64,000 nucleotides of DNA, from contig JAZKIS010000009.1 in NCBI GenBank assembly GCA_040384725.1, positions 14,075-78,074 of the forward strand, written 5' to 3'. The position numbers were made by a program, and so were the translations under genes. This document shows positions 2,261-23,142 of the stretch, piece by piece; the stretch's first letter is position 1; every line of letters begins with the position of its first letter. The notes beneath the pieces were generated by a model. It was given only the letters and a program-made list of their open reading frames with translations, did no database searches and was not told where the DNA came from. The DNA is from Patescibacteria group bacterium. Its GTDB lineage: Bacteria > Patescibacteriota > Minisyncoccia > Phycocordibacterales > Phycocordibacteraceae.

Positions 2261-2266
2261 CAGAGA

Positions 2267-5233: not shown

Positions 5234-6157
5234 ATGTGGACGACGATCAAACGAGTGGTTACGGGAGGAGCGAAGAATTTCTTCCGTAGCGGTGCGGTCT
5301 CGTTCGCGACCGTCCTCATCATGACCGTGACGCTCGTGATCGTCGGGTCACTCATATTCCTCTCTGCGATCCTCTCGAACACCCTCGCGTCGCTCCAGGA
5401 CAAGGTGGACGTGAACGTGTACTTCGTTACCGACGCCGATGAGCGCGATATCATCGCGATCCAGGACCGCCTTGAGACTCTTCCTGAGGTATCGAGCGTG
5501 GCCTACACCTCACGCGAGGAACGCCTTGAGGAGTTCCGTACGCGCTACGAGAACGACCAGCTCACGCTCCAGGCGCTCGATGAGCTCGGGAACAACCCGC
5601 TCGGTGCCGCTCTTTCCATAAAGGCGAAGGATCCGTCCCAGTACGCAGGTATCGTCGAGTTCCTTTCGGACGATCCAAGCATCTCTCCCGAGGGCGGCCC
5701 CATCATCGACAGCATCAACTACTTCCAGAATAAGGCGGTTATCGATCGCCTGACGTCAGCCATCAACGCCACCGAGAAGGCAGGGCTCGCGATCGTTATA
5801 TTGTTCGCAGTCGCGTCGACCATCATCGCGCTCGCAACGGTGCGTCTCGCTATCTACACCGCACGTGACGAGATCGCGGTAATGCGTCTCGTGGGAGCCA
5901 ATAACGCGTACATCCGCGGCCCGTTCATCGTCGCCGGTATCATCTCAGGACTTGTCGCGGCAGTTATCGCGCTCGTGCTCTTCTATCCGGCTACCTGGTA
6001 TGCAGGGAATGCGCTTCAGAACTGGCTTGGAGGGTTCAATCTCTTCAGCTACTATCTTTCGAACTTCGCCATGATATTCGGCATCCTTGCCGGAACCGGC
6101 GTTCTCGTGGGCGCGCTCGCGTCGTGGTTAGCAGTACGTCGCTATCTCAGGGTCTAG
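5234..6157 (+). CDS. ftsX: Cell division permease-like protein FtsX
   Basis: Four-TM architecture with a large extracytoplasmic loop. Lies downstream of ftsE. Confidence 0.85.
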   Translation: MWTTIKRVVTGGAKNFFRSGAVSFATVLIMTVTLVIVGSLIFLSAILSNTLASLQDKVDVNVYFVTDADERDIIAIQDRLETLPEVSSVAYTSREERLEEFRTRYENDQLTLQALDELGNNPLGAALSIKAKDPSQYAGIVEFLSDDPSISPEGGPIIDSINYFQNKAVIDRLTSAINATEKAGLAIVILFAVASTIIALATVRLAIYTARDEIAVMRLVGANNAYIRGPFIVAGIISGLVAAVIALVLFYPATWYAGNALQNWLGGFNLFSYYLSNFAMIFGILAGTGVLVGALASWLAVRRYLRV

Positions 6158-6163
6158 GGCGGT

Positions 6164-7813
6164 ATGGCACTTGACGGACACAAATACATATTCGTCCTCG
6201 GCGGGGTTATGTCGGGCGTCGGGAAGGGTATCGCCTCGTCCTCGATGGGCCTTATCCTCCAGCAGCGCGGGTACGGCGTGAATCTCGTGAAGGTCGATCC
6301 GTACCTGAATGTGGACGCAGGTACCATGAACCCGACTGAGCACGGGGAGGTCTTCGTGCTGAACTCGGGCCTTGAGACCGACCAGGATATGGGCAACTAC
6401 GAGCGCTTCCTCAATCGCGATCTCGGTCCGGAAGACTATATGACAAGCGGGATGGTATATCAGTCGGTTATCAACCGCGAGCGTGCGCTTGAGTACGGCG
6501 GGAAGTGCGTCGAAGCGGTACCGCACGTGCGCGACGAGATTCTAACGCGCATCGAAGCCGCTGCGGCGCATAACGGCAGCAAGATTTCCGTTATCGAGAT
6601 CGGGGGTACCATCGGCGATTTCCAGAACGCACTCTTCATCGATGCGGCACGCGTCATGAAGATAAAGCATCCTGACGATGTCATCTTCGTCATGGTCTCG
6701 TACCTGCCGGTTCCAGGGACCCTGGGCGAGATGAAGACGAGGCCCACTCAGCATGCGATCCGCGAGCTCTCCTCGTACGGGATCCAGGCTGATTTCATAA
6801 TCGCGCGCTCGCAGCAGATCATGGATGAGAAGCGCAAGGAGAAGCTCGCTATCTCCTGCAACGTGCGACCGGAGCATATCATCTCGGCGCCTGACCTTGA
6901 GAGCATCTATGACGTGCCGCTGAACCTCGAGAAGGATTCGATCAGCGACGCGCTCCTCGACGCGCTCAAGCTTCCGAAAGATACCCCGGGAGATCTTTCT
7001 GAATGGGAAGAGTTCGTAAGCCGGATCAAGAACTCGACGAAGGTCGTCAGGATCGGCATCGTAGGGAAGTACTTCGATACCGGCGATTTCGTACTTTCTG
7101 ACGCCTACCTCTCCGTTATCGAGGCCCTCAAGTTCTCAGCGGCCGAGGTCGGCGTGAAGGCAGAGATCGAATGGCTGAACGCGAAGCACTTCGAGAACGG
7201 AGGCGATGCGAGCGTGCTTGAGAAGTACGACGGCATTCTCGTTCCTGGAGGTTTCGGCCAGACGGGTATCGAGGGAAAGATCGAAGCGATCAAGTTCGCT
7301 AGAGTGAACAAGATCCCTTATTTCGGGCTCTGCTACGGCATGCAGCTTATGGTTGTGGAATACGCACGGAACGTCCTTGGCCTTAAGGGCGCGAATACCG
7401 CGGAGATCGACCCGAACGCGGAGCATCTCGTCGTCGACGTCATGCTCGAACAGAAGGCGCTTATCGCGGCGGGGAAGTACGGAGGCTCTATGCGCCTCGG
7501 TACGTATGAGGAGATCCTCAAGGAAGGGACTATCGCACGCGAGGCGTATGGGGCAGAGAGGGTTGAGGAACGGCATCGGCATCGCTATGAGATCAATCCG
7601 GCGTATGTAGAAAGGATTGAAGCAGCAGGACTCGTGTTCTCCGGAAAGTCCCCGGACGGCGTCCTCATGGAAGTCGCGGAGCTTCCAAAGAAAAACCATC
7701 CTTTCTTCCTCGGTACCCAGGCGCATCCTGAACTGAAGGCGCGTCCGCTCTCTCCGCACCCGCTCTTCACCGCGTTCCTTAAGGCTGCGAGCATACAGAG
7801 CGACACGCGGTAG
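6164..7813 (+). CDS. pyrG: CTP synthase
   Basis: N-terminal KYIFVLGGVMSGVGKG synthetase motif and a C-terminal glutamine amidotransferase domain (GLCYGMQ, HRHRYE). 549 aa. Confidence 0.95.
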   Translation: MALDGHKYIFVLGGVMSGVGKGIASSSMGLILQQRGYGVNLVKVDPYLNVDAGTMNPTEHGEVFVLNSGLETDQDMGNYERFLNRDLGPEDYMTSGMVYQSVINRERALEYGGKCVEAVPHVRDEILTRIEAAAAHNGSKISVIEIGGTIGDFQNALFIDAARVMKIKHPDDVIFVMVSYLPVPGTLGEMKTRPTQHAIRELSSYGIQADFIIARSQQIMDEKRKEKLAISCNVRPEHIISAPDLESIYDVPLNLEKDSISDALLDALKLPKDTPGDLSEWEEFVSRIKNSTKVVRIGIVGKYFDTGDFVLSDAYLSVIEALKFSAAEVGVKAEIEWLNAKHFENGGDASVLEKYDGILVPGGFGQTGIEGKIEAIKFARVNKIPYFGLCYGMQLMVVEYARNVLGLKGANTAEIDPNAEHLVVDVMLEQKALIAAGKYGGSMRLGTYEEILKEGTIAREAYGAERVEERHRHRYEINPAYVERIEAAGLVFSGKSPDGVLMEVAELPKKNHPFFLGTQAHPELKARPLSPHPLFTAFLKAASIQSDTR

Positions 7814-7815
7814 AG

Positions 7816-7843
7816 TTGTATTTGGTACGTATAGTGTTATAAT
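7816..7843 (+). promoter_or_regulatory. Sigma70-like promoter (TTGTAT-16-TGtTATAAT) upstream of the XRE regulator gene
   Basis: AT-rich island in a GC-rich genome. Extended -10 TGnTATAAT at 7835..7843. Confidence 0.35.
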
Positions 7844-7897
7844 ATATTCAGACGTGCAATTCCTGCGCGACTCTAGTAACGCATAAAGGGGCTATCC

Positions 7898-8278
7898 ATG
7901 CCGACTGATATCGACTCCCACCTCGGCAAACGACTTCGCCGCCTACGCCGTCTTCTCGGCCTCACGCAGCAGCAGCTCGGCACGAAGGTGGGCATTCGCT
8001 TCCAGCAGATTCAGAAATACGAATGCGGCGCGAACCGCATCTCGGCCGCGCGCCTGTGGCAGCTTGCCGAGGCGCTCGAGTCGTCGGTGACCTACTTCTA
8101 CGACGGCCTGAGAGAGGCTCTCGAGGGGAGGGAGGTTGAGGGAGATGGTGAGGAGCACTCCCGCAGGGAGACCCTCGACATGATCGAGGCATACTACCAG
8201 CTCGATGAGGTGCCGCGACGGCGTCTGGTCGAGCTTGCCAGGGCTATGCGTACGGAGCATGGTAAGAAAGCGGCGTAA
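7898..8278 (+). CDS. XRE-family helix-turn-helix transcriptional regulator
   Basis: LRRLRRLLGLTQQQLGTKVGIRFQQIQKYECGANRISAARLWQLAEAL matches the Cro/C1 HTH pattern. Confidence 0.7.
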   Translation: MPTDIDSHLGKRLRRLRRLLGLTQQQLGTKVGIRFQQIQKYECGANRISAARLWQLAEALESSVTYFYDGLREALEGREVEGDGEEHSRRETLDMIEAYYQLDEVPRRRLVELARAMRTEHGKKAA

Positions 8279-8290
8279 GCCGAACACAAG

Positions 8291-8321
8291 AAAGGGCCGA
8301 CGAGCAATCGTCGGCCCTTTG
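8291..8321. terminator. Bidirectional terminator between convergent XRE gene and metK
   Basis: agggccgacg-agcaat-cgtcggccct stem-loop with flanking A/T runs. Confidence 0.5.
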
Positions 8322-8335
8322 ATCATGTATGCCTA

Positions 8336-9394
8336 TTACAGGCTCACGACCTCTTCCCAGGACCTGCCGGCAACGCCGAAGTGCCCGTAGGCAGCGGTCT
8401 CCTGGAAGATGGGGCGCGTGAGGCCGAGACGCTCGCGAATGGCGAGCGGCCGGAAGTCGAAGTTTTTCTGTACGAGCTCTGACAGGTCCTTCCCGTCCTC
8501 GCTGAACGCCTCGACCATGACCGGCTCTACGCGCCCGATGGCATAGGCGACCGAGACGAGCGCTTTCTTTGCGTGTCCGTTCGCGACAAGATTCTTCGCT
8601 ACGAAGCGGCACATGTAGGCGGCAGAGCGATCTACCTTCGTTGCGTCCTTTCCGGAGAACGCGCCGCCGCCGTGCGGCACGAGGCCGCCATACGTGTCTA
8701 CCATGATCTTGCGGCCCGTGAGGCCGGCATCAGCCTCGAAGCCGCCCTGCACGAAGCGCCCGGTCGGATTAACCAGGAGATCAATGCCGTCGAGGTTCCC
8801 GAGCACTGGCAGGAAGAGATGCTCGGTTAGGTCGAGACGTATGGTCTCGAGATCGGCTTCTTCCGCGTGTTGGGTAGAAGTTAGTGCAGTGAGCACGTTC
8901 CCGTTCTTGAGGGTTACCTGGGTCTTCCCGTCCGGGCGCAGGTAGGGGAGCGTACCGTCGCGTCGGAGCGCCTCGAGTCTGCGAGCGAGCGCGTGTGCGA
9001 GCACCACGCCTTTCGGGAGGTATTCCTCGGTCTCGTCCGTCGCGTACCCGTACATGATGCCTTGGTCTCCTGCACCACCGGTATCGACGCCCATAGCGAT
9101 GTCTCCTGACTGTGTAACGACACGCTCGAATACCTCGAGCGGTTCGGTATAGCCGATATCAGCGTATACCTTCCGTGCGATCGCTTCGTAATCGACGTTG
9201 GTCTTGGTTGTAACCTCGCCGCCGATCATGAGCGTGCCGTGGCTGCCGAAGGTCTCTACCGCAACCCGGGAGTTCGGGTCTCCCGCAAGGCAGGCGTCGA
9301 GTATGGCGTCAGAGATCTGGTCGCATACCTTATCCGGATGTCCTGCGGTTACGCTCTCGGTCGTGTAATGGGAAAGAAGATGCAGCATGTACAA
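8336..9394 (-). CDS. metK: S-adenosylmethionine synthetase
   Basis: TTESVTAGHPDKVCDQISDAILDA at the N-terminus, GGGAFSGKD and other MetK signatures. Preceded on the same strand by a SAM-I riboswitch. Confidence 0.95.
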   Translation of the reverse strand: MYMLHLLSHYTTESVTAGHPDKVCDQISDAILDACLAGDPNSRVAVETFGSHGTLMIGGEVTTKTNVDYEAIARKVYADIGYTEPLEVFERVVTQSGDIAMGVDTGGAGDQGIMYGYATDETEEYLPKGVVLAHALARRLEALRRDGTLPYLRPDGKTQVTLKNGNVLTALTSTQHAEEADLETIRLDLTEHLFLPVLGNLDGIDLLVNPTGRFVQGGFEADAGLTGRKIMVDTYGGLVPHGGGAFSGKDATKVDRSAAYMCRFVAKNLVANGHAKKALVSVAYAIGRVEPVMVEAFSEDGKDLSELVQKNFDFRPLAIRERLGLTRPIFQETAAYGHFGVAGRSWEEVVSL

Positions 9395-9410
9395 ATAGTT
9401 ATGGATGAGA

Positions 9411-9560
9411 CGTACGAAACGAAAGCATCTCCCAATAAAGGGAGATGGATCGTGTCCGGCATCGTCCCCTTACGGGTCTGGGAGCACCGTTTCCTGTTAG
9501 GGATGGTTGCTGGCGGGTCGTAGGCCCAGGTGCCTCTCCGCGCTCTTGATACTGCGTATT
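9411..9560 (-). promoter_or_regulatory. SAM-I (S-box) riboswitch with intrinsic terminator in the metK leader
   Basis: The minus strand reads UAUCAAGAGCGCGGAGAGGCACCUGGGCCUACGACCCGCCAGCAACC...GGUGCUCCCAGACC...GAUGCC. This matches the SAM-I core (UAUCAAGAG..GGAGGGA..GGCCC..GCAACC..GGUGC). It is followed by the hairpin CAUCUCCC-UUUAUU-GGGAGAUG and a U-rich tract. Confidence 0.7.
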
Positions 9561-9636
9561 CGGTTGTACTCGCTTAGGATAGCACGGGACTGTGTGGGGG
9601 ATATACTTGGTGCATACCCGTCATATACCTTCAATC

Positions 9637-10065
9637 ATGGAAGTAGAGATCAATTACTTAGCGGTGCTCCTCTCGACGCTTGCGTCGGTTATCTTAGGGT
9701 CGCTTTGGTTCGGCCCATTGTTCGGCAAGCAGTGGATGCGCCTCGCCGGCATCCAGATGCCCGGAGAGATAACTCGCGCCATGAAGAGGAGCATGATGCG
9801 TTCGTACGCGCTCGTTGCGCTCACCAGCTTCGTTATGGCAGCGGTGCTCGCGCACATCCTCTTCTACGTTACCGAGTTCTCGGACGTGTTTGGCGTCGAT
9901 ACCGCCATAACAACCGCGCTCTGGTGCTGGCTCGGGTTCGTGGTACCGGCGACCCTCGGCTCCGTGCTCTGGGAAGACCGTCCCTGGAAGTACTGGTTCA
10001 TAACGGCCGGCTTCTGGCTCGTTGCCCTCGTTGTTACGGCCGCGATATTAGCCGTCTGGCGCTAG
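9637..10065 (+). CDS. DUF1761-like small membrane protein
   Basis: Four hydrophobic helices. Start placed at MEVEINYL; the ORF is open from 9592. Confidence 0.5.
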   Translation: MEVEINYLAVLLSTLASVILGSLWFGPLFGKQWMRLAGIQMPGEITRAMKRSMMRSYALVALTSFVMAAVLAHILFYVTEFSDVFGVDTAITTALWCWLGFVVPATLGSVLWEDRPWKYWFITAGFWLVALVVTAAILAVWR

Positions 10066-10108
10066 GATTGAAATAGGGGAGTGTTTTAGGTATTGTACGT
10101 AGACCGGG

Positions 10109-10128
10109 AGCGGGTTCGCCCGCTTTTG
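10109..10128 (+). terminator. Short GC hairpin plus T-tract after the DUF1761 gene
   Basis: agcggg-ttcg-cccgc followed by tttt. Confidence 0.4.
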
Positions 10129-10132
10129 GTAT

Positions 10133-10203
10133 TGCGGGATCGTCTAATGGTAGGACAGCGCTCTCTGGAGGCGTTTATCTAGGTTCGAGTCCTAGTCCCG
10201 CAG
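10133..10203 (+). tRNA. tRNA-Gln (anticodon CTG)
   Basis: Manual cloverleaf. U1:A72 acceptor TGCGGGA/TCCCGCA, as in bacterial tRNA-Gln. D-loop AATGGTA, anticodon loop CT-CTG-GA, T-arm CTAGG-TTCGAGT-CCTAG, discriminator G. Confidence 0.85.
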
Positions 10204-10295
10204 CAATCAAGGAGGTGGTTTCGTGCGTCCTAAGAGCGTGGCTTGTGTTCTGTCAGGCAGGTGTGGAATTCCGCTGGAAAAGGTAGAATTTCAAT

Positions 10296-11357
10296 ATGAC
10301 TGGCCGCGAACTTCCCAAACCAAATACTCAATTCTTGAGTTGGTTTTATGGAGAGCATAAGAAAGGTACTTTGGTACTGAATCCTAAATATCAGCGAAAC
10401 CCGATCTGGTCTATAGGACAGAAATGTTTCTTGATAGATAGTCTTATTTCAGGCTCTCCAATACCTCAGGTATTTATAAACATACAGACTACCGGAAAGG
10501 GTGCGAGCAGGGCTACCCAATATGAGATTGTTGATGGTCAGCAGAGGTTGAGAGCTGTACTAGAATTTATGGACGACGAGTACGCCTTAATTCGCACGAC
10601 TGCGAAATCTTATCCTGTCTCTGACATATACGAACCGCAGATCGGGAAGAAGTATTCCGAACTTCCAGACAGTCTGCAAAGTGCAATATGGAACTATTCC
10701 TTAGCTGTGCAGGAATTGCGCGAATGGAACGATGTCGAAATTCGAGCTCTATTCCGTCGTTTAAATTATGTGGTTGAAAAGTTGTCTAACCAGGAGCTCA
10801 GGCACTCTCAATATTTCGGTGAATTTGTAGGAGCAGTTGAAGGACTCTCATCAGCAAAATTCTGGGATGATTTAAATTTCTTCACTCGAAGAGATTCACA
10901 GCGGATGAAAGACGTTGAATACGTCAGTGAGTTATTTGCGATATTGATTGATGGTATTCAGGACCAGCAAAAAACACTTGATCGTTTTTATGCGGACTAT
11001 GACGTTGTATTTCCACATAAAAGTAGGTATATCTCGACCTTCGGCCGAACACTCGAGTCGTTCAGGACAATTCAAGAGTATCTAGAGGAAAGTCGATTCA
11101 AGAATAAGGCGGATTTCTATACTTTGTTTGCTGCAGTCTCTGAGATAAACACTCGTACTAAAGTTGCAACTGACTTGAGTGAGGCAGAATCAGCATTAAG
11201 GCGATTTGAACAGGAGCTGGCAGCTCCTGTTGAACAGTTAAGAGGAAAGGCAAGTCGTTATTACCAGACGGTTATAGAAGGCCCAAATAAGAAAGCTAAG
11301 CGCGAAGAACGTACAGCTATATTTCGGGAAATCTTATCAAGAGCCCTGAAAACTTAA
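10296..11357 (+). CDS. DUF262 (ParB/sulfiredoxin-like) domain protein
   Basis: N-terminal YQRNPIW...LIDSLISGSPIPQVF...YEIVDGQQRLRAV carries the DGQQR signature of DUF262, the N-terminal module of GmrSD-type enzymes. No DUF1524/HNH is found within the same ORF. Confidence 0.75.
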   Translation: MTGRELPKPNTQFLSWFYGEHKKGTLVLNPKYQRNPIWSIGQKCFLIDSLISGSPIPQVFINIQTTGKGASRATQYEIVDGQQRLRAVLEFMDDEYALIRTTAKSYPVSDIYEPQIGKKYSELPDSLQSAIWNYSLAVQELREWNDVEIRALFRRLNYVVEKLSNQELRHSQYFGEFVGAVEGLSSAKFWDDLNFFTRRDSQRMKDVEYVSELFAILIDGIQDQQKTLDRFYADYDVVFPHKSRYISTFGRTLESFRTIQEYLEESRFKNKADFYTLFAAVSEINTRTKVATDLSEAESALRRFEQELAAPVEQLRGKASRYYQTVIEGPNKKAKREERTAIFREILSRALKT

Positions 11358-11363
11358 GCGCAT

Positions 11364-12044
11364 ATGAGTTTGGCTAGCGAAGAGGTACGCAAATTCATCG
11401 ACAGGGTGCAGGTGGCTGGAAACTACCACCGCGAGCTACTATCCGCGGTTCATTTAAAGACCCATCAGGCTTCGCTTGAAACGATGCTCTCGGAACAGTT
11501 TGTATTTAACATGGTGGTGTATTGGGAAGTTTTTGTGAGTGATCTCCTCCTTTCCTATCTTGTCATGTCCCCAGCACAATACCGCAAAACCCTGCGCGAA
11601 AAGATTCAAGCCTCAATAAAAGATCGTTATGGCAGCGCTGCAAGTAGAACTATTAGTTTCAGAAACGAAACGAGACTTTCGTTAGCTCAAGCAGCAGCCC
11701 TAGTTGACCCAAAAGATTTTAATATATCAGTAATTTCAGCTGATAATTTGGCAAAACGAGCAAACGAGATTCTTGCTGCAAAATATGCGAAGTCCTTTAC
11801 TCTTGACCCGGATGACAGACAGTTTGTAGATTTTCTAATTTCTATTAGAAACTATCTTGCGCACAGAAGTCAGGGATCACGAACTGCCTTGAGAAGCGCG
11901 GTTACATCTCTCCGGGGAATTAACTCTGACCTTAGTGGGAACATTACGAATGTGGGGACCTACCTTAAGGCAAAGAATGCTGCTGACGAGACTCGAGCAC
12001 TTGTCATAGCTCGCCGCCTAGAAGAGTTGGCTCTTAAACTCTAA
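11364..12044 (+). CDS. Putative HEPN-domain protein (Rx4-6H motif)
   Basis: 226 aa, mostly helical, with FLISIRNYLAHRS giving R-x4-H near the C-terminal third. It lies 7 bp downstream of the DUF262 gene on the same strand. Confidence 0.5.
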   Translation: MSLASEEVRKFIDRVQVAGNYHRELLSAVHLKTHQASLETMLSEQFVFNMVVYWEVFVSDLLLSYLVMSPAQYRKTLREKIQASIKDRYGSAASRTISFRNETRLSLAQAAALVDPKDFNISVISADNLAKRANEILAAKYAKSFTLDPDDRQFVDFLISIRNYLAHRSQGSRTALRSAVTSLRGINSDLSGNITNVGTYLKAKNAADETRALVIARRLEELALKL

Positions 12045-12071
12045 AGGATAATGTTCTAGACATAGTAATAA

Positions 12072-12893
12072 GTGCGTGGTTTTATAATAGACATGGATAT
12101 TTCTAAGCTTCCTGCACCGGATAGCGAAGAGCTCAGAGCTCTTGTTGAGAATGGGGTGACAAGAGATATATACGCTGCACTCTACGCGAATATGGATAAG
12201 TCGTTATCCATATCGGAAATCCGTTCCCTTCTAGGACTTGTTTCGGGAGAACAAGAGCATCTAAATCGTCGACTCCGTGATCTTTATGGTGCTTTTGAGA
12301 TTGAACGCACAAGACGCGGCAGGGATACGCTTTATAGATTGGTGTCTCGTGCAGAAAATCCTCATCAGACCGCTGGGCGAATTTCAGCAAAAGTCAGAGC
12401 ATGGATTCTCCGAGATCAACGCTGTAAGCAATGCGGGCGCACCCCTTCAGAAGACAAGATAAAGCTGCACGTCGATCATATTATTCCTCAGGAGTGGGGA
12501 GGCACTGATGCGGAAGAGAATCTACAGGCCCTATGTTCAGAGTGTAATGAAGGGAAGAAGAATTTCTATTCAAGTTTTAATGAGTTTGCGGAGAGCATCA
12601 AACAAGCCATAAGTTACGATGAACCCCACAAGCGTATTGGCGAGTTACTGAAAGCTTTTAATGGAAAACCTGTTCCATCTGACTTGCTAGAAGTGGTAGC
12701 AAAAGCAAAGCAATACCAGGACGATTGGCAGAAAAGAATGCGCGAGTTACGCGAACTTGGTTGGGATTATTCGTTTGAAAAGCGCAGGGAAGGATCTAGA
12801 GTAAGAACCTACTACGTCTTGCTGCACTCAGAGTCGTGGCCTGAGGGAAGTATTCGCGCTGAGATTAGGCGACGAGAACTCGAGAAGAAGTAG
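12072..12893 (+). CDS. HNH endonuclease
   Basis: CKQCG...KLHVDHIIPQEWGG...ENLQALCSECN is the canonical HNH/His-Me finger with a Cys4 zinc site. It has a roughly 120-aa N-terminal extension and a 100-aa C-terminal extension. Confidence 0.8.
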   Translation: MRGFIIDMDISKLPAPDSEELRALVENGVTRDIYAALYANMDKSLSISEIRSLLGLVSGEQEHLNRRLRDLYGAFEIERTRRGRDTLYRLVSRAENPHQTAGRISAKVRAWILRDQRCKQCGRTPSEDKIKLHVDHIIPQEWGGTDAEENLQALCSECNEGKKNFYSSFNEFAESIKQAISYDEPHKRIGELLKAFNGKPVPSDLLEVVAKAKQYQDDWQKRMRELRELGWDYSFEKRREGSRVRTYYVLLHSESWPEGSIRAEIRRRELEKK

Positions 12894-13896
12894 CCTTTGG
12901 TTTCTTCGGGGCGGTTGGTTTTCGGTCACCCTGCTCGATTGCCTTTCTGATTGCCTTTCTGATTGCTTTGCCAACAGCTTCAGCGACGGGAGGAGGAAAG
13001 GCATTACCAACCTGGCGATAAGCTGCGGTTTTTTTCCCTGAGAATTTCCACTCCTTTGGGAAGCCTTGAATGATTGCGGCCATCTGAACAGTCAGGCGGG
13101 GGTCACCATCAAAATCTGCTTGGGGAGCAAACTCAACTAAGCCCTTCCCGTCTACTCCAAGCGCGAGCCACGCTTTTTTCGCTCGTGTGGGTCCCAAATC
13201 AGCACCCCCGTGCTTTTTAGATCCTCCAACTAGTGTTGGTCCAACCTTAGAAGCTTTTTTCCGCCATGCATCAACTTTCTTCCAGCCGGCACTTGCCATC
13301 AGTTCATATAAAGCATCACCAACAGTCACAATCTTTTCCGTATTTCCTATGGGCCATTCGAAATGCTCGGCATACGGTTTCTGTAAGGCAACCATAAGTG
13401 TGCGCGGCCGAAGTTGAGGCACTCCAAAATGTGCTGCATGGAATAGCTTCCACGAGACAACATACCCCATGCGCTCCAACTTCTTTGTAATGACATCCCT
13501 ATAATCTTTGAACTTCGGATCTAAGAGACCTCTTACATTTTCAATCAATACTGCCTTGGGCTGAGTTTCTTTAACGAGCTTAAGCATGGCAGGAAAGAGA
13601 TCACGCTCATCAAGTTCTCCAAGTTGCTTTCCAGCTTTTGAGAATGGGGGGCAGGGAACACCTCCCGCAACAAGATCAACACCTTTGTACTGAGTTCCCT
13701 TAAATTTATTTAAATCTGCTTGAATGACATTCCATTTGGGACGATTAAGTCGGAGTGTATTGCAAAATTGCTCTTCAATTTCTACCAGGGCTGCATGCTC
13801 AAACCCAGCGCGCTCGAGACCTATGGCCTGGCCACCTGCGCCTGCGCAGACTTCCAAAGAGGTTAATTTTTTACTTGATGCCTTAGCCATAAACAT
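12865..13896 (-). CDS. DNA (cytosine-5)-methyltransferase
   Basis: Motif I LEVCAGAGG, motif IV GGVPCPPFSKAG (PCP variant of PCQ), motif VI ENVRGLL, motif X QVGNAFPPP. It is convergent with the HNH gene and overlaps it by 29 bp at the 3' ends. Confidence 0.9.
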   Translation of the reverse strand: MFMAKASSKKLTSLEVCAGAGGQAIGLERAGFEHAALVEIEEQFCNTLRLNRPKWNVIQADLNKFKGTQYKGVDLVAGGVPCPPFSKAGKQLGELDERDLFPAMLKLVKETQPKAVLIENVRGLLDPKFKDYRDVITKKLERMGYVVSWKLFHAAHFGVPQLRPRTLMVALQKPYAEHFEWPIGNTEKIVTVGDALYELMASAGWKKVDAWRKKASKVGPTLVGGSKKHGGADLGPTRAKKAWLALGVDGKGLVEFAPQADFDGDPRLTVQMAAIIQGFPKEWKFSGKKTAAYRQVGNAFPPPVAEAVGKAIRKAIRKAIEQGDRKPTAPKKPKATSSRVLVA

Positions 13897-13914
13897 AATT
13901 CTACCAAAATTGAC

Positions 13915-14943
13915 CTAACTACGCTGTACGGGCAAAGCGCCTAGGAAAATCCTTTTTTCTTTCAAAATAAGTTGATTTTTCAAACACGACAAAAGTTCAC
14001 GCTTCTCCAGGAGCGTCCCTTCCCGCAGGACATATTTCGCATAATAACGAATATCAATATCTTCTGTATCAATTTCGTCAGAATTCCCGGAGACGACATT
14101 TTGAAAACGTCTGAATCTTCTCACCTCGTCCATGAGTTTATGTTTGACCCTTATTTCATCAATGTCTGTTTGATCTAGAAGCGCCTCGAATTGAGCAATC
14201 AGCTCTTCTTCTCGTAGGTATCCGCCACAGCAGTCTCGGTCTTTTGACCTACTACATCCGTAGTAAACGTATCTCGCTGTGAGACCTGTCTTTTTAATGT
14301 GCTTGAATTTTTCTTCAGCAGATACCCCTGAACCGCATAGTCCACAAGTAAGTAGTCGAGTGAAGGCGAATTCCTTCGTCTCACTCCGGACTATGCGGTC
14401 CCGCTTGAGTTGAGCTTGTGTCAGATCGAAGAGCTCTCGCGTGATGATTGGCTCATGCAGTCCGTTGTACCAATTGCCGCTCTTGGCTGGGTATTCGAAC
14501 TGTCCGTAGTAGAAGGGCATACCCAGGATCTTGTGGACGTTGCTGAGACTAAGATGTTTATTGCCACGGGGCGTCCTCAAGTTCAAATCAAACCTTAGCC
14601 AGTGGTATACCTTCCGCCCAGTCCATTTCTCGTACGCGACCTTCTCGAACATTTGCTTAATGATATGAGCTCGTTCCGGATCAGTTATGACATGTCCGCG
14701 ACGATCTGCTCGATTCTGACTTAGGTATCCTGTTGGTGCGGGAGAAGGCCATAGCCCCATCTCGCACCGCATGCGTAGACCTCGCTTCACGTTCACGCTC
14801 TTGTTGTCGTTATCGAGCTTCGCCTGAGAACAGAGAATCATGAGGAGGAATTTCTCGCTCGGCGAGTTGCTGAAGCGCTGCCCGTACGTCCGTATCTCAA
14901 CGAGTGCTTTCTGGTCCATAAGATCGACCAGAGTGCCGAGGTC
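13915..14943 (-). pseudogene. Large serine recombinase lacking the N-terminal catalytic (Ser) region
   Basis: The recombinase domain is retained, with a zinc ribbon (CGLCGSGV...YYGCSRSK..C) and a coiled coil. Homology to the resolvase domain starts only at ...DLGTLVDLMDQKALVEIRTYGQ.. (the late E-helix region). Upstream codons are not recombinase-like and hit a stop at 15049..15051. Confidence 0.7.
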
Positions 14944-14944
14944 T

Positions 14945-15250
14945 CCAGCGTTGCTGGATGCGTTGAAGGAATGCCGGGGTTGGGAAGAGGAGTTACAAGG
15001 AAAGACCGTTGCAGGTACGTCAGCCGGTGTCTGCTTCCTGTCTCGGTACTACTATAGCCTCAGCAATCTAGAGGTTCGAGAAGGTCTCGGACTCTTGCCC
15101 GTTAAGGCACTCGTACATTATCGCTCTGATTATAATGCCCCTAATATTGACTGGGACGTGGCATACCAAACGCTTGATGAGTATGGAGAGAATCTCCCGA
15201 TCCTCGCGCTTCCAGAAGGAGGATTCGAGATCATTGAAAAGACGTTCTAG
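14945..15250 (+). pseudogene. C-terminal fragment of a peptidase S51 (dipeptidase E/cyanophycinase-like) gene
   Basis: GKTVAGTSAGV...GLGLLP... matches the S51 nucleophile region (GxSAG) and the downstream part. There is no N-terminal half. Upstream DNA is the antisense of the recombinase. Confidence 0.5.
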
Positions 15251-15276
15251 CGGTCACTCGTCCGTCAGTTCAGTAT

Positions 15277-15311
15277 AAGGAAAGCCGCCCGTATACAGGG
15301 CGGCTTTCCTT
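15277..15311. terminator. Bidirectional terminator hairpin
   Basis: aaggaaagccgccc-gtatacag-gggcggctttcctt, near-perfect 14-bp stem. Confidence 0.5.
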
Positions 15312-15323
15312 GTCGAGAACAAA

Positions 15324-15581
15324 TTAGATAGCTTCGTCCGCTGTTATCTCTGCAGAATTTGTCCACTGCTGAACACGGCCCTTGAACTGGTCCCAGTCTG
15401 CAGCGACCCAATCTTTCGCTGCATCTACCTCGCCACTGAAGTTATCCAGCATGCTGGTACGCTCCAAACGTTCCTCAGCATCCATCTTCTCTATCTTTGC
15501 CGATTCCTCCTTCTTTACGCCCTCCCACCATTGGCGGTAGTCATTGCCTGCATCGTTAAGGTTTGGAGTGTCGTTATCCAT
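15324..15581 (-). CDS. Hypothetical small acidic protein (85 aa)
   Basis: ORF with a downstream terminator. No family recognised. Confidence 0.4.
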   Translation of the reverse strand: MDNDTPNLNDAGNDYRQWWEGVKKEESAKIEKMDAEERLERTSMLDNFSGEVDAAKDWVAADWDQFKGRVQQWTNSAEITADEAI

Positions 15582-15672
15582 ACGTATTGTTGGTTTAAGG
15601 TCTGCTAGATATAACTCGCGCTATGTGAGCTATCCTACGTTCCTCTGTATGAATGCTGGGTGAATCAGAAAT

Positions 15673-15996
15673 CTACCTGGATTTCTTCTTCTCAAGTATT
15701 CCCTGAACTGAAGGACTTATCGGTTTATCCTTGCGGTGGATACACCCGATCCAGCAGCAGGGGCGGCGCACACCTTCCTTGAGTTCGCTGATAAGTCTCT
15801 TTACGTGCTCCTCCCGGGTCTCTGCTTTCTTTACCGATGTAACCCAACAGATCCATTCGTTACGTGCGAGCGGCGTACGCTGTTCCCATGCAAAAAGTGC
15901 CTTCTTGTCTGAGGTAAGAGCCTTTCGTATGTCAGACGGCATTCTGTGCACCGTACCGCCAGGGAGTGCTTTCTCAGTCATACGTAAACTGTACAC
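15673..15996 (-). CDS. YdeI/OmpD-associated (DUF1801-like) family protein
   Basis: ...ETREEHVKRLISELKEGVRRP... resembles the YdeI/OmdA C-terminal signature. An alternative start at MTEKALP (15981) is possible. Confidence 0.45.
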   Translation of the reverse strand: MYSLRMTEKALPGGTVHRMPSDIRKALTSDKKALFAWEQRTPLARNEWICWVTSVKKAETREEHVKRLISELKEGVRRPCCWIGCIHRKDKPISPSVQGILEKKKSR

Positions 15997-16072
15997 CAGT
16001 TATGCAATGGGTGTGCAAAAGAGGCACAGATCTCTGAGACAATAGAGACATTAGCTAATCTTACGCATTTGT

Positions 16073-16456
16073 ATGGATATCACAGTCTTTCTCGCACAGA
16101 TCTGGGGACCGATTATGCTCGCTATCGGACTCGGTATCTTCGTTAGTCGCAGCTACTACCTAAAGCTCTATCGTGATCTGGAAAAGGAGATGCTCGCGGT
16201 CCTTATCTTCGGTATGGCCGGCACTGCGCTCGGTATCATGCAGATAAGCGTGCATAACGCGTGGAATACGCTCCCTCAGATAATCGTGAGCGTGCTCGGT
16301 TGGGGACTCCTGCTAAAGGGAGTCGTATTCATAATCGCGCCACGGTTCGTGGATCGTGGAGGAGATTGGGAAGCTAAGTCCGGATTGCTGCCGCTAGTAG
16401 CGACGGTACTACTCATACTGGGCGCGTACTTGGTCTGGGTCGGATACGCATCCTAG
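16073..16456 (+). CDS. Hypothetical 4-TM membrane protein
   Basis: 127 aa, hydrophobic. Confidence 0.5.
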   Translation: MDITVFLAQIWGPIMLAIGLGIFVSRSYYLKLYRDLEKEMLAVLIFGMAGTALGIMQISVHNAWNTLPQIIVSVLGWGLLLKGVVFIIAPRFVDRGGDWEAKSGLLPLVATVLLILGAYLVWVGYAS

Positions 16457-16520
16457 GTTCATGAAAACGTCACCTACTATCTCTTAGTATGCCGAGCGTA
16501 CAAGCCTAATAATTCCTTAC

Positions 16521-16772
16521 ATGGGTATCATCCTTTGGATTGTGTTCGGTGCGATTGTCGGTTGGCTCGCGTCTCTTATCATGAAGACTAACGGCCAGCA
16601 GAACCTGCTTCTTGATATCATCGTGGGTATTGTCGGTGCGGTGCTCGGCGGCTGGATCATGACTATGCTCGGCCAGGGAGGAGTAGAAGGCTTCAACCTC
16701 TACAGCTTCGTCGTCGCGCTTATCGGCGCAGTCGTGCTGCTCGCTATCGTAAAGATGGTTCGCAGGGGATAG
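16521..16772 (+). CDS. GlsB/YeaQ/YmgE-family stress-response membrane protein
   Basis: MGIILWIVFGAIVGWLASLIM...IIVGIVGAVLGGWI is the typical transglycosylase-associated protein pattern. 83 aa. Confidence 0.8.
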   Translation: MGIILWIVFGAIVGWLASLIMKTNGQQNLLLDIIVGIVGAVLGGWIMTMLGQGGVEGFNLYSFVVALIGAVVLLAIVKMVRRG

Positions 16773-16786
16773 GAAGCCTTACGCAT

Positions 16787-16822
16787 AAGAAGAGCCCGGT
16801 CTTTCTGGACCGGGCTCTTCTT
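16787..16822. terminator. Bidirectional terminator between convergent genes
   Basis: aagaagagcccggtc-tttctg-gaccgggctcttctt, perfect 15-bp stem. Confidence 0.6.
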
Positions 16823-17462
16823 ATTTCCTGCGGGCCTTCTTGTACTGTGTGTAGAAGAGGAATCCCAGAGCTCCCACGACCCCGAGAACGATCGCTACCT
16901 GGAGGAACGACTCTACGGTCGAGAAGTAGGCGAGCATCTCGTCAGCGGCCTCGATTCCCGCATACCCGAGGTAGAGGAAGAAACAGTCACGGAGGATAGA
17001 GCCGATGATCGTGGTGATGATGAACAGGCGGAGCGGGACCTTGAGCGCGCCTGCGCCGAACGACACAACGACGCTCGGAACGAAGGGGAGCGTTCTCAGA
17101 AGCGTAAGGAGGAGATAGTCCTTCCACCCATTCCCGAGACGCGCACCGAAGGATTCAATCTGCGCATGGGTTACCCCGAAGAATTTCGCGAACCTGCCTG
17201 AAAGCAGATCCTCTGCCTTATCGGCAACGACATAGACCACCAGTGCTCCAACGAGCTTGCCTGCTGTTGCTGCGAGGGAGAGCCCGAACAGCATCCAAAG
17301 CGAGTATCCCTGTATCTGCGCCAGGCTTCCCATAACGAGCATAACGGGACCCGAGGGAATAGGAGCGATAACTTCCTCTATTGCCGAAGAGACCGCGGCA
17401 AAAACCGGAAGCGGCATGGCGGTCGCAAGCGAGAGCATGAGCTCCTCCAGGTGATGAAACAT
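16821..17462 (-). CDS. DedA/VTT (SNARE-associated) family membrane protein
   Basis: Multi-TM protein with a conserved DedA-like core (..FGARLG..W..L...LPFVP). Confidence 0.65.
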   Translation of the reverse strand: MFHHLEELMLSLATAMPLPVFAAVSSAIEEVIAPIPSGPVMLVMGSLAQIQGYSLWMLFGLSLAATAGKLVGALVVYVVADKAEDLLSGRFAKFFGVTHAQIESFGARLGNGWKDYLLLTLLRTLPFVPSVVVSFGAGALKVPLRLFIITTIIGSILRDCFFLYLGYAGIEAADEMLAYFSTVESFLQVAIVLGVVGALGFLFYTQYKKARRK

Positions 17463-17591
17463 GCCTAAGGTATACCATGCTCGGTACAGCGTTTTCTTCC
17501 CCTACTATGCCTTCATGAGGCCTTAATGCGCAGCATGTAATTGTACGGGGATGCGGCCGGGCCGCTTATTCCCTTTATACTCCAGAACATT

Positions 17592-18362
17592 ATGATGAAA
17601 TTATTCAGTCTCGCGCTTCTTTTTAGTCTTGTCGTAGTTGCTGGCAGCGCACAGGCCCAAATACTCAATACCAACGGCAGCGCGAGCGTAAACGGCAGTG
17701 CATCAACCGGAAACGATGATACGAGCGTATCAGCGGATGCCGATACAACAGTTGACGCAAACGTCGACGCTGACACAACGAATGATTCCGATAGCACCAC
17801 TGCCACTGAAGGAGATGCTTCAGTATCCGGAAACGCAATGAGTGATTCCGGCATTGGATTCAACATCCTCCGCAGCGAGATGGATGAGAATACCGACTAT
17901 GCGGTAACGAAGGCAGACTCTGTACGCACGTCCGCAAGCCTCGAGTCCTATGCGGCTGCAACGGTCCGCGCTGATGAGCGTCTTGATTCGGTCGAGATGA
18001 ATAGCGGGCAGATGGACATGGAGTATCGCAAGCCCGCGAAGTTCCTTTGGATCTTTCCGGCAAGCCTCAAGGCGCACGTGACGGTTGATCAGGAGGGGGA
18101 GGTTACGGCGCGCTACCCATGGTACTCGTTCCTGTTCTCAACCGATGAGACGCGCTCGGCGCTTGAAGCTGAGATCCGTGACGAGGTCGAAGCCATCGAT
18201 GATTCTGCACAGGTGACAGCGAGCGCAGAGGTCTCAGGAACCGCCTCGACGGGCGTACAGGGAGATCCTGTGATTCGTCGCTGGGCACGTATTATCGAAG
18301 CGGCCTATATTGCAGTCTCCGGTGATGCACGCGTTGATGCGAGTGCACAGGCATCGTCATAA
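17592..18362 (+). CDS. Secreted hypothetical protein with low-complexity Asp/Thr/Ser-rich region
   Basis: Signal peptide MMKLFSLALLFSLVVVAGSAQA. The ORF is open from 17541. Confidence 0.5.
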   Translation: MMKLFSLALLFSLVVVAGSAQAQILNTNGSASVNGSASTGNDDTSVSADADTTVDANVDADTTNDSDSTTATEGDASVSGNAMSDSGIGFNILRSEMDENTDYAVTKADSVRTSASLESYAAATVRADERLDSVEMNSGQMDMEYRKPAKFLWIFPASLKAHVTVDQEGEVTARYPWYSFLFSTDETRSALEAEIRDEVEAIDDSAQVTASAEVSGTASTGVQGDPVIRRWARIIEAAYIAVSGDARVDASAQASS

Positions 18363-18378
18363 GACAGCTATAAGAAAA

Positions 18379-18407
18379 AGGCCCGCAACCATGCGGGCCT
18401 TTTTCTT
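18379..18407. terminator. Bidirectional terminator between convergent secreted-protein gene and RND permease gene
   Basis: aggcccgca-acca-tgcgggcct followed by ttttt. Confidence 0.6.
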
Positions 18408-21400
18408 ATATACGTTCGTACCGCTCCTTCACGGCCTTGCCTGGCCAACGATGGTAGAGAACGGGCACGAGAACGAGCGTGAGGATCATGGACCACGCGA
18501 GTCCGAACATGATAGAGAACGCGAGAGGCCCCCACATGCCGGCGGCTAAGGAAAGCGGCACCATACCGACGACGGTCGTAATGGTCGTAAGTACGATCGG
18601 ACGGAAGCGCGACGAGGATGCCTCGACCACGACGTCGGTGAGGCTCTTGTCGCCATGCTCCTTGCCGATACGCGCGATGGAATCCATGAGGATGATCGCA
18701 TGGTTTATGATCACGCCGGCTAGCGCGATAACGCCGAGCATCGAAGGGAAGGAAAGCGGCGAACCGGTGAGCATGAGCCCGAAGAACACGCCTACTAACG
18801 AAAGCGGGATGATTGAAAGCAGGTAGAGCGAGTGGCGGAACGAGTTGAACTCGAGCACGAGGATCGCGAGCATGAGCGCTGCGCCTGCGAGAAGCGCGAT
18901 ACCCATCTCGGCGAACGACTGGTTCACGTCCTCGCTCTCGCCACCGATCTGTAGCGTGACGCCTGGAGGCAGCGTGACGTCTTCCATGCGCTTCTCGAAG
19001 TCAGAGGCTATCTGGATTGGGTTGCCGCCCTTGGCCGCATCCGCCGTGAGGGTCGCTATACGCGTGCCGTCTTCATGGTGGATAGAGGCGTTTGCGGGCT
19101 CGTACGTAATGGTCGCGATCGTCGAGAGCGGCACCGGTCCGTTCCGGCCCTGTACCGAGAGGCCTCGCACGGCGTCAATGGTGGCATTCGCGGTCTCCGA
19201 GGGGTCGCGATAGCTCGGATTAAGGTCGAGCTTCGTACGCACTTCAATATCGGTGGCGCCCTCGCGGATATCGGTCGCTTTCACGCCGAAGAGTGCGCTG
19301 CGGAGCGTATCGGCAACCGCGAGCGGCGATACGCCGAGCTCGGCAGCGCGTGCTGAGTCGAGACGAACGACGAACTCAGCGCCATCGTCCTTCATGGAGG
19401 TTTCGATGTTCGTGGTGCCAGAGACTTCTGAGAGTACGCGTGCGCCCTGATCGACGGCAGTGCCAAGATCTGCAAGATCATCCCCGACGAAGGTGGCGGA
19501 GATAGCGGCTCCGGTCGGCGGGCCTCCTGCAGGCTCCGAAACGGTAATGCGCGCTGATGCGATGTCGGCGAGTTCCTTGCGAAGGCTCGTGACTATCTCA
19601 GCGCTCGATTCCTCACGGCCTTCCGCGAGATTCACGGTTATGTTGCCGATGTTGCTGCCAGAGGCGCCGGTGCCGCTGAATGCGCTACCAACCCCTACGT
19701 CAGAGACGAACGACTCGATACGGTCGTCGCCATAGAGCATCTCCTCGACCTCGCGCACGGCAAGGTCGGTATCGGTGAGCGCCGAGCCGAGCGGCTTCTC
19801 GATCTCTACATAGATGAAATCCATATCCTCGGCAGGGAAGAACACTACCTTCACGAGTCCGGTGATAGGAAGGAGGAGCGAGAGCACGAAGAGGCCGATC
19901 ATGGTCCACAGGAAGCGATTCTCCTTCTTCCGGTCTCCGAGGATCCGGCGAAGGTACCCCTCGTACCATGCTTTCGCGCGCTCGTTGTACTCTTCCTGGA
20001 TCTTCTCGATGCGCGACGGCTCTTTGCGGATGATGAATATCGCTAAGAGGGGAACGAGGCCGAGGGCGACGAAGATCGACGCGAGGAGCACGAAGATAAC
20101 CGTGAACGGGATCGATGCGATGAACTTGCCGACGATGCCTGAGAGGAAGAAGAGCGGGATGAATACCGCGACGGTAGTGAGCGTTCCGGCGATGAGCGGC
20201 CACGCGTATTCCTTGATCGCGAGGATAGCGGCCTCGCGCTTTCCAGCTGTCTTTGCGAGACGGGTATGGATCGCCTCGACCACCACGATGCCTGAGTCGA
20301 CGAGGATACCGATCGCGAGGATGAGAGAGAAGAGCGATATGAAATTGATGGTGTTCCCGGACGCAGCGAGGCCGATGAAGGCGATCAGGAACGAGAGAGG
20401 GATCGACGCGGCAGCGATAAGGGATTCGCGCCATCCGAGGGTGAGGAGCAGAAGAATCATAACGAGCACGATCGTCTCGAGGCCGACGCGCGAGAGCTCG
20501 ACGAGGTCATGCTCGATGTCCTCCGCAGCGTCGTACGTGATGACGGTCTTAGTGCCTGAGAGCGATCCTGCCTCGAGTTCCTTGAGCGTCTCTTTCACGT
20601 CGCTTCCGGTCTCGAGAATGTTGCCGCCGCGGCTTTTGAATATTGAAAGGGTAAGCGCGGGGGTGGATGGCTCGCTTTCGACAGAAACGCGCGAGAACGT
20701 CGACGCGTCTGCTAACCCGTCCACGACGTCCGCGACGTCACCGATACGTATCGAGCTGCCGCCAGGGCCTGCAAGGGCGATGGCCCGTACCTGATCGGTC
20801 TCCGTGAGGCCTGCCTCAAGGCGAACCGCGTAGCGGATGCCGTCTACCGTGATGCTGCCGGCAGGAGACGCGACGCCCGACGCGCGGAGCGCGTTCGTAA
20901 CGTCGCTCATGGAAAGCCCGTACTGACGGAGCTTCGCCTGCTCGACGATTACCTGCACCTGACGCTCACGGACACCAGAAAGGGACACGGAGGAAACGCC
21001 GCGAACGCGCTCGAGCTCATCCTTCACCTCTTCGCCGAGTGCCGTGAGTTCTGCGGGAGCTAGCTCGCCCGCGATTGAGAGGATAAGGATCGGCTGATCC
21101 GCGAAGTTGATATCGCTCACGATCGGATCGTTCGCTTCCTCAGGAAGCTCAGGACGGACGGTATCTACCTCGTCCTTAAGAAGCTGTATCGACTTGTCGA
21201 GGTCGGCATTCGCCGTGAACTCGACGGTGACGGACGAGACGCCGTCCCCTGAGCTCGAGGTAACCTTCGAGACGTTCTCGATGCCAATAACGCGGTCCTC
21301 GATCTTGTCCGTGATGAGCGACTCGACGTCTTCAGCGGAAGCGCCCGGAAGCACGGTAGTAACGATACCCATCGGGATCTGGACCTCAGGAGCCGATTCC

Positions 21401-21504
21401 TTCGGGATAACCATAACGGCGTAGAAGCCGCCAAGAATAAGCACGATCGAAAGAAGGATCGTGAAATGATGCTTGTCGATGAAGAACGTCCAGAATTTCG
21501 CCAT
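18406..21504 (-). CDS. RND-family efflux transporter permease (AcrB/AcrD/AcrF-like)
   Basis: 1032 aa with 12-TM architecture and two large periplasmic loops. N-terminus MAKFWTFFIDKHHFTILLSIVLILGG. Confidence 0.95.
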   Translation of the reverse strand: MAKFWTFFIDKHHFTILLSIVLILGGFYAVMVIPKESAPEVQIPMGIVTTVLPGASAEDVESLITDKIEDRVIGIENVSKVTSSSGDGVSSVTVEFTANADLDKSIQLLKDEVDTVRPELPEEANDPIVSDINFADQPILILSIAGELAPAELTALGEEVKDELERVRGVSSVSLSGVRERQVQVIVEQAKLRQYGLSMSDVTNALRASGVASPAGSITVDGIRYAVRLEAGLTETDQVRAIALAGPGGSSIRIGDVADVVDGLADASTFSRVSVESEPSTPALTLSIFKSRGGNILETGSDVKETLKELEAGSLSGTKTVITYDAAEDIEHDLVELSRVGLETIVLVMILLLLTLGWRESLIAAASIPLSFLIAFIGLAASGNTINFISLFSLILAIGILVDSGIVVVEAIHTRLAKTAGKREAAILAIKEYAWPLIAGTLTTVAVFIPLFFLSGIVGKFIASIPFTVIFVLLASIFVALGLVPLLAIFIIRKEPSRIEKIQEEYNERAKAWYEGYLRRILGDRKKENRFLWTMIGLFVLSLLLPITGLVKVVFFPAEDMDFIYVEIEKPLGSALTDTDLAVREVEEMLYGDDRIESFVSDVGVGSAFSGTGASGSNIGNITVNLAEGREESSAEIVTSLRKELADIASARITVSEPAGGPPTGAAISATFVGDDLADLGTAVDQGARVLSEVSGTTNIETSMKDDGAEFVVRLDSARAAELGVSPLAVADTLRSALFGVKATDIREGATDIEVRTKLDLNPSYRDPSETANATIDAVRGLSVQGRNGPVPLSTIATITYEPANASIHHEDGTRIATLTADAAKGGNPIQIASDFEKRMEDVTLPPGVTLQIGGESEDVNQSFAEMGIALLAGAALMLAILVLEFNSFRHSLYLLSIIPLSLVGVFFGLMLTGSPLSFPSMLGVIALAGVIINHAIILMDSIARIGKEHGDKSLTDVVVEASSSRFRPIVLTTITTVVGMVPLSLAAGMWGPLAFSIMFGLAWSMILTLVLVPVLYHRWPGKAVKERYERI

Positions 21505-21510
21505 ACTGGG

Positions 21511-23064: not shown

Positions 23065-23142
23065 ACGATTATATTATAACATAGATGAAGCCCTGTCAAT
23101 TAAGGATGTGGCGTAGTTATTAATCAGAATCACGTCTCGGAG

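Follow-up and report, generated by a model that had tools for sequence, protein, structure and literature searches.

Two genes that have each lost their 5′ part meet head to head at 14952/14953 (± 2 nt) in a 64,000-nt stretch of contig JAZKIS010000009.1, which belongs to a Patescibacteria metagenome-assembled genome (MAG; GCA_040384725.1) and is referred to here as the window. One of them is a large serine recombinase gene and the other a gene of the Peptidase_S51 family. The truncation of both genes and their meeting at a single point are real. We believe that one recent deletion joined the two and immobilised a mobile element next to a tRNA-Gln gene, and that both remnants are pseudogenes; we give this explanation a probability of about 0.8. 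The two gene remnants are as follows.

13915–14952, minus strand: 5′-truncated large serine recombinase gene, equivalent to residues 102–440 of intact homologues.
14953–15250, plus strand: 5′-truncated Peptidase_S51 gene, equivalent to residues ~96–194 of 194-aa homologues.

The minus-strand frame ending at 13915 is open and free of stops up to 15049–15051, and its longest ATG-initiated open reading frame (ORF) is 13915–14919 (334 aa), listed by NCBI as MES2931619.1, “recombinase family protein”. The fragment matches the Pfam families Recombinase (PF07508, E 5.9e-13) and Zn_ribbon_recom (PF13408, E 2.7e-07), both above the cut-offs, which bears out the recombinase domain and zinc ribbon recognized in an earlier description of this DNA made without database searches (the sequence-only reading). 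No Pfam match to Resolvase (PF00239) was obtained in the fragment. The homologue search gave thousands of serine recombinases, the best 120 of which were used for comparison; these are 62–85% identical, mostly 425–465 aa long and mostly from Patescibacteria MAGs, and Resolvase, Recombinase and zinc ribbon domains are all present in nearly all of them. To full-length members of the family the fragment is 74–85% identical.

In the protein alignment, identity begins with N-A-G-D-L-G (residue 102 of homologue P0092), directly after the H-P-D-R-L-S-R motif. The remnant is without residues 1–101, including Ser28 of the YARKS motif and the DRLSR motif itself. The Resolvase domain spans residues 23–167 in homologue P0091, so that ~65 residues of the catalytic domain (102–167, alpha-D to alpha-E) are retained. 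The sequence-only reading had described a recombinase without its catalytic domain, which is correct for the catalytic residues and too sweeping for this retained part. Recombination of attachment (att) sites attP and attB by the window copy appears implausible given the truncation. At the DNA level, homology to four intact recombinase genes (L001, L003, L008 and L011 in our numbering of loci) ends at 14952, and homology to the closest sister, L175, ends at 14954.

On the plus strand, the join lies within a chimeric ORF (14840–15250, 136 aa; MES2931620.1, “hypothetical protein”), one third of which is antisense recombinase. Its first 42 codons are 95–100% identical to the same antisense frame in intact relatives, in agreement with what had been read from the letters alone. 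The ORF has 90 homologues, nearly all of ~194 aa with PF03575, and the best are 62–63% identical; by alignment and tblastn the match is limited to homologue residues ~89/96–194 and to the last ~100 residues of the ORF. The fragment is the C-terminal 99 of ~194 residues, with residues 1–95 missing. S51 homology had been placed from the GTSAG motif onwards, and although the C-terminal half is indeed what survives, the homology begins ~20 residues before that motif.

Alone, the S51 fragment scores 17.0 bits against PF03575, under the 23.9-bit cut-off, and the 140-aa S51 frame has no Pfam match. The fragment is assigned to S51 because its homologues match the family: P0002, to which it is 62% identical, passes the PF03575 threshold with 33.6 bits. 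A comparison with Protein Data Bank (PDB) sequences returned noise only (E ~1). The serine of GTSAG, the histidine and the glutamate, which we take from PepE to be the Ser-His-Glu triad, are kept in invariant alignment columns (S65, H97 and E130). Compared with Peptidase family S51 (PepE, class I glutamine-amidotransferase-like fold), the fragment keeps the catalytic columns but not the complete fold of ~190–230 residues. The public annotation of 13915–15250 gives MES2931619.1 and MES2931620.1 both as ordinary proteins with no pseudogene flag.

Alignment to full-length homologues, a check proposed along with the sequence-only reading, has the recombinase begin at residue 102 and the S51 protein at residue ~96, and protein and DNA alignments agree that the two genes are cut at a single breakpoint, as first claimed. 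Its position is corrected from 14943/14945 to 14952/14953, ~8 nt rightward. Translation and alignment also agree that the minus frame upstream of the recombinase homology consists of unrelated codons and stops at 15049–15051. The repeat shared by the two sides of the join is at most 2–3 nt. With the full-length proteins as tblastn queries, neither recombinase residues 1–101 nor S51 residues 1–95 found a second match in the 64-kb window. A weak match at 15586–15720 (plus strand) to recombinase residues 80–124 (36% identity, two in-frame stops) was rejected as chance.

Sister genomes, which had also been suggested for comparison, carry an intact recombinase at the same locus. We surveyed 94 recombinase loci (L001–L176). 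A full-length recombinase is found at the same chromosomal place in L001, L008, L011 and L175, in a prfB-ftsE-ftsX-pyrG...tRNA-Gln context; one to three variable genes follow the tRNA-Gln, and then comes the recombinase, oriented so that its 3′ end and that of the tRNA face each other. The short contig L094 has tRNA-Gln, cargo and recombinase in the same order, and in all five the tRNA-Gln lies 1.3–2 kb past the 3′ end of the intact recombinase. L175 (JGI, 405-kb contig) is collinear with window positions 2109–10232 at 81–83% nucleotide identity, and its homology to the window resumes within the recombinase (14954–14198). The features that mark this place in the window are listed below.

10133–10204, plus strand: tRNA-Gln(CTG) gene (ARAGORN; Rfam tRNA, 58 bits).
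10205–10239, plus strand: 35-nt trailer after tRNA-Gln, ending in a proximal att-like core GTCCTAAGAGCGT (10227–10239).

The trailer is conserved in five genomes. The window has a single match to the core pattern GTCYTRARAGCNT; L001, L008, L011 and L094 each have two, which share a strand, are 6.5–8.0 kb apart and of which the second lies 5′ of the recombinase. By our estimate ~0.04 chance matches to this pattern are expected per locus. The proximal copy of L175, GTCCTAGACGCGT, departs from the pattern at two positions, and it is within the proximal core, at 10232, that the window ceases to be collinear with L175. Five independent genomes have the distal 15-mer TGTCCTAAGAGCGTC without any variation. 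About 55 nt beyond the distal core there is a conserved block, AGTTCTGGCTCGGASTGTCCAGCA, which is exact in four genomes and has several differences in L175. We read the two repeat copies as the putative attL and attR of a site-specific element. Serine integrases typically have a 2-bp crossover identity, which the 13–15-nt repeat here exceeds. Neither the distal core nor the distal block was found in the 64-kb window, which has only the proximal core at 10227–10239. A direct repeat of the tRNA-Gln 3′ end was considered as the far boundary and rejected: none of at least 13 nt was found, and a 14-nt pair at 10198/15058 (86%) is at chance level.

The family elements are 6.5–8 kb long and bounded by the direct repeat GTCCTAAGAGCGT(C), with the recombinase in the centre. 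Their intact order is an att core ~22 nt past tRNA-Gln, 1–4 cargo genes, the recombinase, further cargo with a helix-turn-helix (HTH) gene, and the second core. The HTH protein of the intact elements has 145–175 aa (e.g. L175 6775–7209 and L008 5721–6245, both on the minus strand) and matches two PHROG small-terminase families (E 7e-10 and 1e-8), and Pfam HTH_8 weakly. In a profile search, its gene was found in 47 of the 94 recombinase loci, always on the 5′ side of the recombinase and 69–7350 nt away, and in none of ~80 S51 loci without recombinase; it was not found in the 64-kb window. The AlphaFold model of the protein was unusable (3-sequence alignment, mean pLDDT 48, pTM 0.24). The pairing of a gene resembling that of the small terminase (TerS) with the recombinase suggests, by sequence resemblance, that the element family may have a phage-satellite lifestyle.

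The geometry that a simple deletion needs is seen in two other loci. In L082, complete recombinase and S51 genes diverge from an interval of ~1 kb that holds a DUF5677 gene, and in L060 a 37-aa C-terminal remnant of the recombinase lies 2.3 kb upstream of a divergent S51 gene. L175 has a GDSL lipase gene in its distal flank, oriented divergently to the recombinase, and such a gene is missing from the window. In L004 (9453–10585) and L005 (1820–2952), S51 is immediately preceded by a GDSL lipase gene, with an overlap of 4 nt, and in L060 (4774–6283) the lipase gene is a short way upstream of S51; the two may form a conserved gene pair. The synteny around intact S51 genes in L004–L006 was too distant to inform the comparison.

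We infer that a single deletion took away recombinase codons 1–101 and the promoter region, the whole of the distal cargo with its HTH gene, and the distal att core, and that it continued through chromosomal or older-island DNA to codon ~95 of a divergent Peptidase_S51 gene. From codon 101 to the distal core, the relatives have 3.7–5.1 kb. What survives of the element is its 4.7-kb proximal portion. Because the remnant has no nucleophilic serine and only one att site is left, the element could presumably no longer excise. As neither fragment has gained a stop or frameshift (0 in the 346 codons of the recombinase remnant, none in the S51 remnant), the deletion is probably recent. The dN/dS of the recombinase remnant against L003, 0.08, with no surplus of dN on the window's own branch, accords with this. 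The deletion or illegitimate recombination event that the sequence-only reading had proposed as fossilising the element is supported by the intact relatives with two repeats at the same locus and by the lone repeat here, where the distal repeat, the distal block and the HTH gene are all missing. The tRNA-Gln anchor, the att repeat and the element family had gone unnoticed in that reading.

Some points weigh against this explanation. Among the relatives found, none above 85% identity combines this cargo with an intact distal half, so that the deleted segment, including its size, is reconstructed by analogy. The junction is known from one sequencing run, a second assembly being probably from the same reads. 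The search for the missing halves covered 64 kb of the MAG, or all but 24.7 kb of one 88.7-kb contig. The undecayed 334-aa ORF with its own ATG also fits a retained function.

This last point leads to the alternative that survives best, itself unlikely: the deletion happened, but the remnant, although catalytically dead, has been kept as a protein that binds DNA and that might occupy att sites and block related elements, or act as a regulator. Alpha-E helix, recombinase domain, zinc ribbon and C-terminal region are all still present in the remnant; its 334-aa ORF, which starts with an ATG at 14919, is annotated by NCBI as a normal protein and has neither stops nor frameshifts, and its dN/dS against L003 is 0.08. 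The low dN/dS, however, mostly reflects history before the deletion, and the window branch gives no signal of its own. No sigma-70-like promoter was found upstream of either remnant, the S51 antisense DNA ahead of the recombinase included, and none of the 120 relatives is an N-terminally truncated homologue starting at the same codon.

A misassembly, in which the metagenome assembler joined unrelated fragments at 14952/14953, is less probable still. The genome is a MAG, the junction ORF falls in a single-member cluster, the junction 30-mer is absent from JGI metagenome contigs, and both fragments are suspiciously undecayed. But the Logan contig L174 (SRR26324625, 18,975 bp), which comes from a different assembler and also has the 334-aa remnant ORF, is 100% identical to window positions 10177–24919 (14,743 nt) and spans the join. 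The two sides share at most 2–3 nt, which leaves no repeat for a de Bruijn graph to collapse, the tetranucleotide correlation of left and right flanks is 0.86–0.94, and the order and orientation of the flanks match those of L175. For these reasons, the assembly chimera offered as an alternative in the sequence-only reading is unlikely; it keeps some residual weight since the two assemblies probably share reads and the junction is unseen elsewhere.

An inversion or translocation, with the missing halves surviving as a reciprocal tail-to-tail junction elsewhere in the genome, is about as improbable as a misassembly. An inversion between co-oriented genes yields exactly such a head-to-head pair of 3′ halves, and the missing halves were sought in 64 kb of the genome. 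Neither the 15 kb on the left of the join nor the 49 kb on its right contain a reciprocal junction, and the neighbouring recombinase and S51 genes of L082 and L060 are already divergent. A DUF218 gene (35565–36200, 51% amino-acid identity), the probable next gene shared with L175, keeps the order and relative orientation that it has there with respect to the left flank and the recombinase. This orientation evidence, together with the lack of a reciprocal junction, argues against an inversion. The distance from tRNA-Gln to DUF218 is 25 kb in the window and ~12.5 kb in L175.

A site-specific event, be it integration into S51 through an att site inside the recombinase gene itself or action on pseudo-sites, is very improbable: large serine integrases often integrate into protein-coding genes and the junction is clean, but integrated relatives keep the whole recombinase and have their repeats elsewhere, other truncated homologues start at different codons, the junction and the 14-nt core have by inspection just the 5 nt AGCGT in common, the window does not contain the predicted reciprocal junction, and no independent genome was found to have its recombinase divided at codon 101 and its S51 gene at codon 95. 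An attP within the recombinase gene was ruled out by the whole genes of integrated relatives and the differing starts of short homologues.

In the window, the island left by the proposed deletion extends over 10.2–14.95 kb. Its GC content is 45.7% versus 56–60% in the flanks, and its tetranucleotide correlation with the flanks is r 0.02–0.27, versus 0.86–0.94 between the left (1–10.1 kb) and right (18.4–64 kb) flanks. It has the features of a genomic island, being adjacent to a tRNA gene, deviant in composition and with an integrase remnant aboard. Four cargo genes lie between the att-like core and the recombinase remnant, followed here by a hairpin on the far side of the join.

10296–11357, plus strand: DUF262/GmrSD_N protein resembling NsnA, 353 aa (PF03235, E 8.7e-20; PADLOC NsnA, E 1.1e-35).
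11364–12044, plus strand: 226-aa protein without a Pfam or PADLOC match.
12072–12893, plus strand: HNH endonuclease, 273 aa (PF01844, E 1.2e-11; weak PADLOC matches to REase_II and type IV REase HNH models).
12865–13896, minus strand: C-5 cytosine DNA methyltransferase (Dcm-type), 343 aa (PF00145, E 1.6e-68; PADLOC DruM/MTase_II, E 4.7e-148).
15268–15320, no strand assigned: GC-rich hairpin of ~14 bp, an inverted repeat between the convergent S51 remnant and an 85-aa gene (15324–15581, minus strand).

The cargo (the DUF262/NsnA-like protein, the 226-aa protein, the HNH endonuclease and the Dcm methylase) resembles a restriction-modification or defence set and would now be a fixed chromosomal island. 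The hairpin probably represents the original 3′ terminus of the S51 gene; a simple terminator scan did not call it, a T run being absent. The DNA at 14953–18400 has an intermediate composition (GC 53%, tetranucleotide correlation of 0.7–0.8 with the core genome) and carries small accessory genes: the 85-aa ORF, OmdA, a 127-aa ORF, Transgly_assoc, a VTT/DedA-type gene and a gene for a 273-aa Asp/Ser/Thr-rich protein. This stretch may belong to an older island.

To the left of the island are DUF1761, metK with an S-adenosylmethionine (SAM) riboswitch, an HTH protein gene and homologues of pyrG, ftsX, ftsE and prfB. The riboswitch (9456–9555, minus strand; RF00162, 45.9 bits, barely over threshold) is upstream of metK (8336–9394, minus strand). 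Far to the right, a class A bacterial RNase P RNA (54610–54926, minus strand; RF00010, 123 bits) adjoins a tRNA-Ser(GGA) gene (54052–54137).

The comparison that explains the junction also points to an element family. The recombinase of the window is 78% identical to that of L008, versus 61% for pyrG and 42% for ftsX; conservation above that of housekeeping genes is consistent with an element that spreads horizontally and has a single target site. A tRNA gene is present in 48 of the 94 recombinase loci, and in 45 of these 48 the nearest one is 3′ of the recombinase, on the opposite strand and 0.1–8 kb off. The nearest tRNA is Gln in about half and Ser, Trp, Asp or Asn in the rest. No convincing direct repeats were found around the L082 element, which is next to tRNA-Ser. 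Cargo occurs on both sides of the recombinase and includes restriction-modification, KAP NTPase, GmrSD, MutH/Dcm, HATPase_c_3 and SDR/methyltransferase genes. The intact elements examined showed neither a primase nor a helicase. The recombinase family matches the PHROG integrase family phrog_95 (E 4e-65), the C-terminal domain structure of A118 integrase is a weak sequence match (E 1e-3), and a scan of IMG/VR with the recombinase gave one 57% match, on a 7.9-kb contig.

Two further arrangements were observed. Directly beyond its distal repeat, L008 (5353–5547) has three incomplete copies of the tRNA-Gln 3′ part, two in direct and one in inverted orientation, which look like scars of earlier integrations. 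Two family recombinase genes lie in tandem, ~1.7 kb apart, in L137 (10001–14191) and L162 (8705–12895); these may be stacked elements.

More tentatively, and as something possible rather than probable, we suggest that the remnant is a dead member of an undescribed, widespread family of ~7 kb elements in Patescibacteria. Members of this putative family would have a highly conserved large serine recombinase, more conserved than housekeeping genes, that inserts at a fixed position just past tRNA genes (mostly tRNA-Gln, with the core GTCCTAAGAGCGTC; Ser, Trp, Asp and Asn in other clades), a constant TerS-like HTH partner, and variable defence or metabolic cargo on both sides.

Intact homologues share the Resolvase-Recombinase-zinc ribbon architecture with large serine integrases of the A118, phiC31, Bxb1, SpoIVCA and CcrAB type. 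They differ from these in being consistently next to tRNA genes, and the window copy differs in its loss of residues 1–101 with the nucleophile. The closest analogy is with the tycheposons of Prochlorococcus, in which the island likewise adjoins a full-length tRNA gene in a streamlined genome and the cargo is variable and often defensive. The partial tRNA-Gln 3′ fragments beyond the L008 element and the TerS-like HTH gene of the intact relatives are further likenesses: fragmented integrases and partial tRNAs are described as remnants of older integrations in tycheposons, and PICI-like tycheposons carry terS (bioRxiv 10.1101/2020.12.28.424599). Of 501 tycheposons, however, 474 have tyrosine recombinases of the tRNA-associated kind, with recombination taking place within the tRNA gene (same source); the elements described here use a large serine recombinase, and their repeat is found ~22 nt past the tRNA. 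The elements also differ in their host, Patescibacteria, and in that no replication module (primase, helicase) was seen in those examined. The situation in the window matches the general model of tRNA-seeded islands with degenerate elements and fragmented integrases.

According to the Islander paper, tRNA genes are not known as targets of serine-family integrases, and a paper on genomic islands in Patescibacteria (PMC12455944) makes no mention of integrases or tRNAs. We found no published description of serine-recombinase elements flanking tRNA genes in Patescibacteria, in a coverage of the literature that is incomplete and no proof of novelty; the element family looks undescribed.

The junction itself is ordinary genome decay, a routine locking of a mobile island into the chromosome. 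One deletion would both kill the integrase and remove one att site, so that cargo of the restriction-modification type becomes permanent. For annotation, MES2931619.1 and MES2931620.1 are listed as ordinary proteins although we read both as pseudogenes. The element family, a by-product of explaining the junction, is the more interesting lead. Its wider value lies in a family of serine recombinases at tRNA flanks in the ultra-small genomes of Patescibacteria, whose routes of gene exchange are poorly known, and its defined att core is open to experimental test. If the proposed family is real, the window would illustrate the way in which one of its members turns into a defence island fixed in the chromosome.

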